Made by a program: the position numbers and the translations under genes. From Tubiluchus corallicola (lineage: Eukaryota > Animalia > Priapulida): 15,196 nucleotides of DNA. Below are positions 11,116-15,196 of this stretch, piece by piece. How positions within the stretch are numbered: position 1 is the first letter of the stretch; each line of letters begins with the position of its first letter. The notes beneath the pieces are model-generated. The model ran no database searches and was not told where the DNA came from. It saw only the letters and a list, made by a program, of their open reading frames with translations. The stretch is taken from positions 1 through 15,196 of the forward strand of contig JAQGDQ010002510.1 in assembly GCA_030141605.1 (NCBI GenBank). The letters run 5' to 3'.

Positions 11116-12732
11116 TTGAAAAACCTAATATTGTTACTAATTTTTATTATTAGTATAACCTTAAAATCACAAACAGTATATTACAGTCATTTAAACACTG
11201 AAGTATATGAATTTTTAGATGAACTTGCTAATAATAAAGTTATTGAAATTAACTCAGCAATAAAGCCTTATTCAAGGGAATTTATTGCAGAAAAACTACA
11301 AGAGGCTATCACTCAAAAGGAAAAACTTACTTCCCGACAACAGAAGGAGGTGGAGTTTTATTTAAAAGACTTTAATAAAGAACTTAAAAAAGATAAAAAC
11401 TTTAAAAAAAGATGGGATGCTTTATATTATAAAGATTCTTTGTTTTCCTTTACACTTAACCCTATTATTGGCGGCGAATTATTAAAAAATAAAACAACCA
11501 GCTTACAAAGAAGATACTGGGGAGCAGAATTTTTTGGATATATAGGCAAAAATGTAGGAATATATGGAAGCTTGAGAGATAAAAATGAAGGGGAAATATT
11601 AGCACTTCCTGATTATTTTACTCAACAAAAAGGAGCAAAATATAAACATAAAGATGTTACAGATGGGGATAACACAGTAGGTGACCACAGTGAGGCACGA
11701 GGAGGAATAACAGTAAGTTGGAATTGGGGTACAGTAGCTATTGTAAAGGACTATTTTACTTGGGGCAACAACAACAACGGAGCTAATATCTTTTCAGACA
11801 AAGCCCCTTCTTTTGGGCAAATAAAGCTATATCTCAACCCTGTAAAATGGTTTGAGTTTAACTATGTGCATGGTTGGCTTGTAAGTGAGATAATAGATTC
11901 TACTCGCAGCTATGAATACGAATATGCAGGTGAAAAATTTCCTAGAAATGTTTTTCATAGTAAATATATAGCTGCTAATATGTTTACTTTTATACCTACA
12001 AAACATTTAAATATATCCATTGGTAATTCCATTATATATAGCGACATAGCAGTGCAAGCAGCCTATCTTGTGCCTTTTTTGTTTTATAAATCAGTAGACC
12101 ACTCTATTGGAGGGATGAATAACCATAGTGGGCAAAACTCTCAAATGTTTTTTGATATTAGTTCACGACAAATAAAATACTTGCATCTTTTTACCTCAGT
12201 ATTTATAGATGAAATAGCACTTCAAAATATGTTTGATGATGAGAAAAGCTCTAATTACGTAAGTTTTAAAATAGGAGCAAGACTGTCTAACTTAATACAA
12301 GATGCTCTCTTCACAGTAGAGTATACTCGTACCAACCCTCTTACTTATCAACATATAGTAGCAACAACAGACAATACTTCTAATGAGTATAATCTTGGGC
12401 ACTATTTACGGGATAACTCACAAAACATATATTTGTCGGCTAAATATAAGCCTATACGTGGACTGTCCTTCCTGTTGGAATTTTCTTATTCAGAACATGG
12501 GCCTAATTATTCGGAGTTTACAGAACAAAGAGAGGGCCTAGCTTTTTTAGAAACAGTAGATTGGAGTGAGCGAGATATAAAGTTTACTAGCAAATATCAG
12601 ATTATTAACGATGGATATATCTATGTTGTTTATAATTATAAAAATACAGAAGGAGAAATAGAAAGATATACTCCTAGTTTTTATTGGGGTAAAACTAATA
12701 CCTACACATTGGGCTTTAATTTTGGATTTTAA
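11116..12732 (+). CDS. Secreted, probably outer-membrane beta-barrel protein (Wzi-like capsule-assembly family is plausible)
   Basis: TTG start, Sec signal peptide, N-terminal KPYSR segment, alternating aromatic strands, EYTRTNPLTY..LGHY, C-terminal YTLGFNFGF beta-signal. Confidence 0.65.
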   Translation: MKNLILLLIFIISITLKSQTVYYSHLNTEVYEFLDELANNKVIEINSAIKPYSREFIAEKLQEAITQKEKLTSRQQKEVEFYLKDFNKELKKDKNFKKRWDALYYKDSLFSFTLNPIIGGELLKNKTTSLQRRYWGAEFFGYIGKNVGIYGSLRDKNEGEILALPDYFTQQKGAKYKHKDVTDGDNTVGDHSEARGGITVSWNWGTVAIVKDYFTWGNNNNGANIFSDKAPSFGQIKLYLNPVKWFEFNYVHGWLVSEIIDSTRSYEYEYAGEKFPRNVFHSKYIAANMFTFIPTKHLNISIGNSIIYSDIAVQAAYLVPFLFYKSVDHSIGGMNNHSGQNSQMFFDISSRQIKYLHLFTSVFIDEIALQNMFDDEKSSNYVSFKIGARLSNLIQDALFTVEYTRTNPLTYQHIVATTDNTSNEYNLGHYLRDNSQNIYLSAKYKPIRGLSFLLEFSYSEHGPNYSEFTEQREGLAFLETVDWSERDIKFTSKYQIINDGYIYVVYNYKNTEGEIERYTPSFYWGKTNTYTLGFNFGF

Positions 12733-12946: not shown

Positions 12947-13567
12947 TTACCATATTTTTTTGTATACTTCTAAAAATTCACTTAAAATCATTGCTGTAGC
13001 CCCCCATACAAAGGTTCCATTTATATCAAAATAAGGAACAGACACCTCTATGCTATTGATAAGTTTGCTTGTCTTTTTTATAGCCATAGGGTTGATTATT
13101 TCATTTACATTAATGTTTATTGCTTTGTTTACTTCTTTAGTGTTTAAAGCAAATTCAGGAGTAAAATCAATAAATCCGACAAAAGGAAAAACCATAAAAT
13201 TACTTACAGGAATGTACAAAGGAGTTAGCTTACCAATATATCTTACATCGTTTTTATTTACACCTATTTCTTCTTCTGTTTCACGCACAGCAGTTTCAAA
13301 AAGCTTATCATCATTTTTTTCATACTTTCCTCCTGGCAAACTTATTTCTCCGCTATGAATAGTATTATCAGCAGTTCTTTCTATTAGAACAAAATTTAAC
13401 CTTTCTTTTATAAAATAGAGTAAAACAAGCACACCACTTTCGACAGGAGGATGAGCAAAGTAGTTATTATTGGTATTTCGCACAGAGGGCGACATTAGTT
13501 TTTGAGCCTTCTCCCCCGGCAGGCTTTTTGCTAATTGTTCTTTTAATTTTGTTATAAGCTTATTCAT
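12947..13567 (-). CDS. NUDIX hydrolase, CoA pyrophosphatase (NudL/PCD1-like)
   Basis: HSGEISLPGGK, Nudix box ETAVRETEEEIG, V.PFVG, VWGATAMIL. ATG 13567 preferred over the track's TTG 13585, which lies in a promoter-like TTACTTTG. Confidence 0.92.
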   Translation of the reverse strand: MNKLITKLKEQLAKSLPGEKAQKLMSPSVRNTNNNYFAHPPVESGVLVLLYFIKERLNFVLIERTADNTIHSGEISLPGGKYEKNDDKLFETAVRETEEEIGVNKNDVRYIGKLTPLYIPVSNFMVFPFVGFIDFTPEFALNTKEVNKAININVNEIINPMAIKKTSKLINSIEVSVPYFDINGTFVWGATAMILSEFLEVYKKIW

Positions 13568-13670
13568 TACAGTATATATAGACAAAGTAAAAAGTAATGA
13601 TAAAAAAATAAATACATTTCGTTAAAATAGCAAAAAGAAGGAGGCAATATATGAAGAATAGAGTATATAT

Positions 13671-13704
13671 AAAAAAAACATGGTGCCTCGCGAGAGGCAC
13701 CATG
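13671..13704 (-). terminator. Strong intrinsic terminator on the minus strand
   Basis: Perfect 11-bp stem CATGGTGCCTC (13679-13689) / GAGGCACCATG (13694-13704), 4-nt loop; A8 at 13671-13678 gives U8 on the minus strand. Confidence 0.85.
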
Positions 13705-13805
13705 AAAACCTAAACCTAATATGTAGTCAACGTGTTGACTACAGCCTGCTTGCTTTATTGTTAAAAGTCAAAAATCAACAAAAAACCTTTAACGGCTCAC
13801 AGGCA
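13671..13805 (-). ncRNA. Candidate ~135-nt small RNA with three hairpins
   Basis: Bounded by a sigma54-like promoter and a terminator. 5' stem closed by GCCUG/CAGGC (13804-13800 / 13748-13744), perfect 9-bp hairpin 13722-13743, single-stranded UAUUAGGUUUAGGUUUU linker. No credible ORF. Confidence 0.6.
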
Positions 13806-13815
13806 CTAAGTATAA

Positions 13816-13832
13816 AACAATAAGTGTGCCAG
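13816..13832 (-). promoter_or_regulatory. sigma54 (RpoN)-type -24/-12 promoter
   Basis: Minus strand CTGGCACACTTATTGTT versus consensus YTGGCACGNNNNTTGCW: exact GG-N10-G spacing, with C at -12 replaced by T. Predicted +1 near 13805. Confidence 0.55.
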
Positions 13833-14344
13833 AAATATGTAACATACTTTTGTTCATAACGATAAGATAAATGTAATGCCTTGTTTTATAGTGATTTAAG
13901 TTGTTTTTGCAAAAAAGAAAGAAATAGCCTTTTAACAAAAAATTTTTTCTTCTATCAAAAAATAAATTCATAATGAGCTGACAGTAAGGAGCTTGCGAAA
14001 TTTGCGTAAATTTAGATATAATATAAAACTATTTTTATGTTTGTTTTAAAATGAGAATGAAATGATTTTTTTGAGATTTTTATGATTTTTGATAAAAAAG
14101 ACTATTTAATTTGAAGTTAAATAAATTTAAAAATACTAAGCATAAAATAACTAACAAAAATTTGATTTTTTATTCTTTGAAGCACGAGTTAAAAAAAGAA
14201 AACAGCAATTTTGATTAACTTTATATTAAATTAGAAATGCATTTTATTAATTCTTCGTCTTTTGTTTTAACGTACTATTTTAATTCTAAGAATAAGAAAG
14301 TACTTCTACAAGTATAACCGTTTATTCAAACTCTTCTCCTTTTG

Positions 14345-14445
14345 CAACTTGCAACTTTAGTCGTAGGCTAAATAGAAAATGAGAACAACAAGTACCCCAA
14401 AAATCCATCAACTTTTATATTAAAACTTAAAACTGTATATCGTTA
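14345..14445. repeat. ~100-bp direct repeat, copy 1
   Basis: Aligns with 14653-14753; 33-bp identical core AAAATCCATCAACTTTTATATTAAAACTTAAAA at 14400-14432, plus shared AATGAGAACAACAAG and GCTAAATA. Confidence 0.9.
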
Positions 14446-14652
14446 TCCTTGCTAATATCTCATGCCTTAAAACAAGGAAGTTAAACAACAGTTGATAAAA
14501 CAAATAGAATGTAATATTTATGTAAAAAAACAATACAAGATCATTTGTATTGCATTACATAAAAAATGTATTAAAATGAGAAAATAGAAATATTTTTGAT
14601 ATTGCTTTAAGATAGTAATGTGCTTTACTTCCCCTTGTTTTTAGCTTTGTTT

Positions 14653-14753
14653 CAACCTACAATTGCTAATCGCAAGCTAAATAAAAGAATGAGAACAACA
14701 AGCATCCAAAATCCATCAACTTTTATATTAAAACTTAAAATTGTATACTGTTA
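14653..14753. repeat. ~100-bp direct repeat, copy 2, next to the permease stop codon
   Basis: Identical core at 14708-14740 (offset 308 bp from copy 1); ends 1 nt from the stop codon at 14755-14757. Confidence 0.9.
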
Positions 14754-14754
14754 C

Positions 14755-15195
14755 TTATTTTAATTTATTTATTTTCTCAAACCCTGTTTTTATTATTATA
14801 AAACAAGGAATTAAAAGAATAGCTACAATAGAACTAAAAGTTATTATATTTAAAAAAATCACATTTGATAAATTTAAACTTACTGGAACATAAGATAACT
14901 CATAAGAATCAGGATTTAGTTTTATAATCTTTAAATGAGACTGCAACAAACAAGTGATAATACCCAATAAACTTCCCCAAAACAGACCTTTAAAAATAAT
15001 GAAAGAAGATTGATAGATAAACATCTTACAAATATTCCAGCTACTATAACCAAAAGTTTTTAGTATTTTCACCATTTGTATCCGCTCTAAGATAATGATT
15101 AGCAAATTTGAAACCATTATCACCCCAGAAACTAAAATCATAAGTATAAGAATGGTATAGACATTCATATTTATTAGCTTCAGCCAATCGAAAAT
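14755..15195 (-). CDS. 3' end of a LolC/LolE (FtsX-domain) ABC transporter permease (5'-truncated by the window edge)
   Basis: The frame stays open upstream of the track's ATG to the window edge: IFDWLKLINMNVYTILILM...ILER...LK..G...F..Q...IIKLNPDSY.LSYVPV. Confidence 0.9.
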   Translation of the reverse strand: MFDWLKLINMNVYTILILMILVSGVIMVSNLLIIILERIQMVKILKTFGYSSWNICKMFIYQSSFIIFKGLFWGSLLGIITCLLQSHLKIIKLNPDSYELSYVPVSLNLSNVIFLNIITFSSIVAILLIPCFIIIKTGFEKINKLK

Positions 15196-15196
15196 T

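Follow-up and report, generated by a model that had tools for sequence, protein, structure and literature searches.

The window, by which we mean the whole 15,196-nt stretch of DNA analysed here, encodes a RuvB protein whose best identity among 251 genomes, all of the order Bacteroidales, is 74–76%, no near relative among them, and it probably belongs to a deep-branching Bacteroidales bacterium. Near one end of the window, between an ABC permease gene and a NUDIX hydrolase gene, lies an element with the following features:

14755..15196, minus strand: 3′ end of an FtsX/LolE-like ABC permease gene, the upstream neighbour
13817..13832, minus strand: sigma-54-type −24/−12 promoter box in non-coding DNA, with the −24 GG and exact spacing; predicted +1 at ~13805
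13671..13805, minus strand: predicted ~135-nt non-coding RNA (fold z −5.63; match to covariance model R1)
13804..13744, minus strand: long imperfect stem at the 5′ end (stem 1; z −2.8 on its own)
13743..13722, minus strand: perfect 9-bp hairpin, from the fold
13705..13723, minus strand: putative seed, consisting of CAU (anti-AUG, partly in the hairpin foot) and the unpaired linker; unpaired probability 0.6–0.9
13721..13705, minus strand: unpaired 17-nt linker, from the fold
13699..13708, minus strand: possible second seed, 10 nt identical to the FopS 5′ seed consensus (by eye, against the RF04319 consensus line)
13671..13704, minus strand: intrinsic terminator from a terminator scan, with an 11-bp stem (13704–13679), a 4-nt loop and U8 (13678–13671)
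12947..13585, minus strand: NUDIX hydrolase gene, CoA-pyrophosphatase-like, the downstream neighbour; start at 13585 or 13567

The preliminary description of this locus had named the −24/−12 box with its exact spacing, the long imperfect stem with its 5′ end (13804) beside the predicted +1, the perfect 9-bp hairpin, the unpaired 17-nt linker and the 11-bp terminator with U8, and all of these were recovered at the same coordinates. It had also counted three copies of AGGUUU, which are present; however, the first (13788–13783) is paired inside stem 1, and only two are unpaired. The RNA segment contains no open reading frame on its strand, with stops in all three frames. Folding of the whole RNA gave −49.4 kcal/mol, with none of 200 shuffled sequences as stable, and the fold is still unusual when the terminator is removed (z −3.1). 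The plus strand of the same segment folds as unusually (z −6.46), so the strand cannot be read from folding alone. Within this structure, the putative seed is the only part homologous to relatives, and the 10-nt match to the FopS 5′ seed is half hidden in the terminator stem.

Strain variation within the sample supports both the structure and the minus strand, as seen in a second haplotype represented by one contig (depth 8.2, covering 13516–13774) from the one sample that contains the window DNA. This contig differs from the window at 25 positions, eight of which are listed inside the RNA (13671–13774); the other 17 would lie below the terminator, because the contig of a second run has 17 differences over 13514–13676, or about 17 in the 160 nt of flank below. 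Four of the eight changes, at 13690–13693, coincide exactly with the terminator loop, which becomes GUAA, a GNRA-type loop. The changes at 13727 and 13738 hit both partners of a single base pair in the 9-bp hairpin, turning U-A into C-G and thus compensating each other. Those at 13697 in the terminator stem (C-G to U-G) and at 13744 in stem 1 (G-C to G-U) produce wobbles that pair on the minus strand only; on the plus strand, both positions would be mismatched. No change is listed in the linker, none of the eight breaks a stem, and by a hand estimate such a stem pattern would arise by chance with a probability of ~0.02. We have little doubt that the element is a real structured RNA gene. That it is a chance juxtaposition or a decayed, non-functional element strikes us as most improbable: chance would supply about one such box per window and no orthologue was found in 401 genomes, but the fold z of −5.6, the compensatory and wobble-only variation and the family-like linker all argue against it.

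The surroundings of the element required correction. The NUDIX gene on the same strand, whose start lies 86–104 nt below the RNA terminator, had been overlooked, and the nearest upstream minus-strand gene, which had been placed more than 1 kb away, is the lolE-like permease, with its stop at 14755, 923 nt above the promoter, across a spacer of 24% GC. That the terminator lacks an obvious mRNA is also less secure than first stated, since a simple consensus scan, which can miss terminators, predicted no other terminator between 14755 and the element; read-through from the permease gene could therefore also end here. On this account the terminator would mainly end a long transcript, and the RNA would be its 3′-end product, either processed or made only in part from the sigma-54 box. 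Besides the missing terminator, several linker-bearing RNAs elsewhere are of a 3′-UTR type (L321, L322, L339, L358, L390), the permease lies near the NUDIX gene in 4 of 30 relatives, and FopS-14 is 3′-derived according to the available part of PMC11697453. The length and composition of the spacer, the position of stem 1, which begins 1 nt after the predicted +1, and the terminators that such a scan can miss nevertheless make this account distinctly unlikely, and a role in terminating lolE transcripts can coexist with the explanation that we prefer, a stand-alone RNA that masks start codons.

Several other observations were made in the window. Two diverged direct repeats of ~130 nt (14358–14491 and 14667–14822, plus strand) stand 308–310 nt apart, the second containing a 24-codon frame by eye; one contig joins 14396 to 14706, omitting 309 nt, and a further copy may exist elsewhere, to judge by loose contig ends at 14686/14747. 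We regard these as a dispersed repeat. On the plus strand, 11116–12732 encodes a protein of 538 aa that seems to carry a signal peptide and matches nothing in Pfam or NCBIfam, and at 1243–1252 a gene that we take, by its translation, to be atpB-like is split into two overlapping open reading frames (695–1252 and 1246–1746), possibly through a frameshift or an assembly error.

Comparison with other genomes placed the linker, though not the whole RNA, among relatives. A search of Rfam, proposed in the preliminary description along with BLASTn, returned no credible family match on the element, and BLAST of 401 genomes found no full-length orthologue of the two-hairpin 5′ end, only AT-rich matches of 20–43 nt. 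A pattern requiring a sigma-54 box followed within 140 nt by a AGGUUUAGGUUU linker had 91 matches in species genomes and 27 in metagenomes; among those listed, 9 and 6, respectively, were judged by eye to be intergenic units of box, linker and terminator, and most matches were rejected as chance coding hits, many in histidine-kinase-like frames. The window has the same arrangement of box, linker within 140 nt and terminator in intergenic DNA, a resemblance that is partly circular, as the class was gathered with the same pattern. A stricter pattern in metagenomes, a search of plasmids and a search of viral contigs for promoter plus linker found nothing, and among the viral 15-mer matches listed none has a box upstream.

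Two layouts recur among these units. Type A consists of a 5′ seed, a hairpin, a second seed and the terminator; type B consists of two hairpins, the seed and the terminator, in the same order as in the window. Linkers are nearly invariant. Covariation, another of the proposed checks, was found: double changes occur in 4 of 18 stem pairs of type B and 12 of 28 of type A, alongside the compensatory pair of the second haplotype. Three type A loci match the FopS model RF04319 at 33–35 bits, below its cut-off of 56. Of the models built without the window, an nhmmer profile matches it in the linker only (E 0.0075), the type B covariance model R1 has the RNA as its only window match (22.3 bits, E 0.004), and the type A model R2 does not match the window; the two matches are partly circular, because the members had been collected with the window's own linker. 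What sets the window RNA apart is its unique two-hairpin 5′ domain, a truncated seed placed internally and, possibly, a second seed in the foot of the terminator.

Among the relatives themselves, the box of the type B RNAs L132, L143, L177, L196, L246 and L452 lies 51–53 nt behind a clpC-like gene (assigned by Pfam on L132), a tRNA lies ~130–200 nt below in L132, L143, L177, L196 and L210, and L177 has an integrase after it. A second linker-plus-terminator unit at L361:635-741, ~90 nt below the first, forms a tandem copy. Four Desulfovibrionaceae genomes (L154, L168, L178, L198) combine a sigma-54-like box, two hairpins and a AGGUUUAGGUUU linker before a gene start; they are probably an unrelated structured leader.

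The proximity of the NUDIX gene, 86–104 nt below on the same strand, raises the possibility that the element is its 5′ leader or attenuator, for example a riboswitch or thermometer. In none of the 30 best NUDIX homologues, however, does a sigma-54 box lie within the 500 nt upstream (a single locus offered only 69 nt), and the only linker-like word upstream of them is inside a coding frame. Moreover, no Rfam cis element matches the RNA, antiterminator folds are not competitive (−38 to −43 against −58 kcal/mol), and in 6 of the 7 type A loci checked the next gene is convergent, so that those RNAs cannot be leaders. We consider a leader function very unlikely, and by these sequence comparisons the RNA is not a conserved leader of the NUDIX gene. 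In the 4 of 30 relatives in which the permease lies near the NUDIX gene, abutting it in two, the arrangement suggests that the RNA unit was inserted between them. The stand-alone ~135-nt minus-strand RNA put forward in the preliminary description is supported by structure-preserving strain variation and by relatives with the same promoter–linker–terminator layout.

The evidence for sigma-54 control is comparative. A sigma-54 +1 is placed 12 nt downstream of the −12 element, which here leads directly to stem 1. No second match occurs in the window at one mismatch or fewer; since chance predicts a mean of 1.0 per window, the box is not significant alone. At −12 it carries T rather than the usual C, a feature of 12 of 22 aligned boxes. 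The box and its distance from the start of the RNA are alike in 21 related loci, all of them chosen because they possess a box. The predicted +1 falls at a FopS-like 5′ end in type A and at the first stem in type B and the window. We also performed a search that was blind to the promoter, using a 14-nt linker core in 401 genomes; the core occurred 95 times, in 78 of them, which does not exceed the frequency of the reversed control. After exclusion of three same-locus repeats, one known member and one unfetched locus, 90 matches were examined and 19 were classed by eye as terminator-ended, RNA-like units. A sigma-54-like box 25–150 nt upstream accompanied 9 of these 19 compared with 1 of the 71 others (Fisher 1e-6, with hits that are not independent); the nine include two boxes inside a coding end, two duplicate loci and four type B loci of one clade, so the count is inflated and amounts to about four independent lineages. 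The boxes of L170, L172, L321 and L322, located in a coding end, were rejected as promoters and treated as chance. The remaining linker-bearing units have housekeeping, PM2-like or 3′-UTR settings.

An rpoN domain was found in 5 of 5 other Bacteroidales genomes and in the Bacteroides thetaiotaomicron control, which, with the conserved box geometry in relatives, supports by comparison the RpoN control originally proposed. In 5 of 5 RNA-bearing genomes, a TGGCA box whose −12 part is variant lies 60–75 nt before the start of the top groES-family match; three second groES-family copies, located behind another gene, have no sigma-54 box. In its available text, PMC12316311 counts chaperones and ATP-dependent proteases among the predicted sigma-54 targets of Bacteroidia.

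Upstream of the box, GAAC (13855–13852), a 16-nt spacer and TCTG (13833–13830) form an element that, by eye, we take to match the sigma-E consensus. If an overlapping ECF-type promoter of this kind drove the real RNA, its start would lie ~18 nt further upstream. GibS and one linker-bearing RNA do use a TGAAC-type promoter; the −10 part in the window, however, is unlike the TGTT of true GibS promoters, GAAC is by eye not at that position in the sigma-54-type relatives, and the structured 5′ end fits the sigma-54 +1. We therefore give this promoter very little credence and regard the RNA as likely to be sigma-54-driven and stand-alone. A near-palindrome directly upstream of the −24 box (13838–13856, minus strand; by eye), overlapping the partial ECF-like element, is a possible regulator site. 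In L132, L143, L181, L186, L187 and L208, a direct repeat resembling TTAAC-N6-TTAAC was seen by eye 45–140 nt above the box; the window has it at chance level only. Next to L186 and L244 lies a divergent histidine kinase gene.

Among known systems, FopS, a set of paralogous sRNAs in B. thetaiotaomicron (PMC11697453, as far as its available text goes), proved the right lead from the preliminary description with respect to kinship of the linker, but the RNA is not a member of that family. Unpaired and U/G-rich, the linker in the window is similar to the 3′ half of the region conserved in FopS, and both RNAs have an anti-AUG CAU before the seed element and an intrinsic terminator. Nevertheless, RF04319 has no match on 13640–13860 at E up to 10, nor anywhere in the window at E up to 1 (gathering score 56 bits). 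The R1/R1′ seed of FopS is single-stranded at a free 5′ end, whereas the window RNA begins with a stem and carries its seed internally, behind two hairpins, and the U-run or U-rich half of FopS R1 is absent from its unpaired region. FopS uses a housekeeping promoter (PMC11697453, available part), the sigma-ABfr type with TAnnTTTG at −7, which by inspection is absent before 13805, where the sigma-54 box stands instead, and present before FopS- and BTnc231-like loci. The window RNA is likely to resemble FopS in its action, by analogy, while lying outside RF04319.

GibS (RF04182) and BTnc231 (RF04180) share with the window RNA a similar length (~145–154 nt), several hairpins with a terminator, and the same seed superfamily, but their seeds are 5′ rather than internal, and neither Rfam model matches the window. 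According to the accessible text of PMC7366714, GibS uses a PM2 promoter, of which the window has only the partial GAAC element upstream. A sigma-54 reading of that promoter was rejected: three GibS matches over the cut-off show TGAAC...TGTT, and none of 20 GibS-model loci has a sigma-54 box. BTnc231 was likewise rejected as a sigma-54 RNA, as no box was found in the 13 loci examined of 16 matching its model. The sigma-54 FopS-like RNAs of other Bacteroidales, types A and B, are like the window RNA in box geometry, linker and terminator, and type B, which lies behind clpC, also has the same order of parts and yields the covariance model that matches the window; the hairpins of both types, however, have no sequence likeness to those of the window, their neighbourhood differs, and the R1 seed is truncated in the window. 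The Qrr sRNAs of Vibrio are sigma-54-driven, Hfq-dependent quorum-sensing RNAs with several hairpins that act by base-pairing. They share promoter type, hairpins and mode of pairing with the proposed RNA, but belong to another phylum and have no Rfam match here, making them an analogy only. In the literature, supplements and figures aside, no sigma-54-driven FopS-like RNA was found, and none was found by term in the available text of PMC10994844, PMC13750123, the FopS preprint or the SrcF preprint.

We propose that this structured RNA gene, with its sigma-54-type box and own terminator, would yield a stand-alone ~135-nt RNA whose unpaired linker pairs with an A/C-rich stretch before the AUG of target mRNAs and represses their translation, as FopS does. 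The 5′ hairpins may be protective, and the targets, by analogy with FopS, would probably be exported or outer-membrane proteins. Transcription would rise through RpoN in heat or protein-folding stress, a trigger that we infer counting in its favour the groES-family boxes and the regulon predicted in the available part of PMC12316311. Linker and CAU together are complementary to an A/C-rich run ending in AUG. Of the 71 non-RNA linker-core matches, 7 lie antisense 3–14 nt before a start codon, compared with 20 of 1420 random positions (1.4%; p 7e-5), and one opposite-strand match lies near a start; this enrichment is relative to random rather than composition-matched positions, and A-rich words are expected near Bacteroidota starts anyway. 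Several of the proteins behind those seven starts begin, by eye, with signal-like peptides. In the exact anti-AUG register, 4 of 43 AUG-ending matches are starts, against 119 of 3625 background ATGs (3.3%; p 0.052), and linker words are not commoner than reversed controls. As the exact register is barely enriched, masking of the start region rests mostly on kinship with FopS, which pairs with translation-initiation regions and represses translation of SusC-like transporters (PMC11697453, in the part available). The gene of the 538-aa protein (11116) gave the best duplex of 15 window starts (−15.6) and was rejected as a target, since coding positions score alike.

The same motifs could instead serve a protein. 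On this account the RNA would mainly titrate an RbpB-like RRM protein through repeated UAGGUU motifs rather than pair with mRNAs, as might be expected from the binding of RbpB to the single-stranded part of FopS (PMC11697453, available sections), the five or more tandem motif copies in some relatives (L170, L172, L364), the RRM genes found in 4 of 5 relatives and the weakness of the exact anti-AUG register. Yet only two copies are unpaired in the window RNA, and in most relatives the motif is still immediately preceded by the anti-AUG CAU; sigma-54 co-regulation of RRM genes was also rejected, with a box upstream of none of nine. We consider titration unlikely to be the main function in the window. 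The 3′-UTR-type RNAs L170, L172, L321, L322, L358 and L364, with many tandem UUAGGUUU repeats before the terminator, are themselves candidates for protein-binding decoys. For the window RNA, we lean towards the full explanation given above, with masking of start codons as its main function.

A broader picture can be offered tentatively. In non-gut and deep-branching Bacteroidales, sigma-54 would be the heat-shock factor driving a widespread class of start-codon-masking RNAs, which would form the RNA branch of the stress response and halt the synthesis of exported proteins while chaperones rise. The window copy would have been built separately, its 5′ end shielded, and would have two seeds: the open linker, covering the bases before AUG, and the half-hidden terminator foot, covering AUG-AAA-AC, which the target would open.

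Bacteroidota manage without Hfq and without Shine-Dalgarno-led initiation, according to the available parts of PMC7366714 and PMC11697453; few of their regulatory RNAs have been characterised, and sigma-54 is a poorly studied sigma factor in the phylum. From its sequence features, the group of sigma-54-driven FopS-like RNAs may constitute an undescribed class, although the mode of action proposed for it is already known from FopS and the surprise is accordingly moderate. If true, the FopS/GibS seed would be a portable module, wired to at least three promoter types as well as to 3′ UTRs, and through its connection to sigma-54 it would become part of the predicted heat-shock regulon, providing that regulon with a testable post-transcriptional arm.
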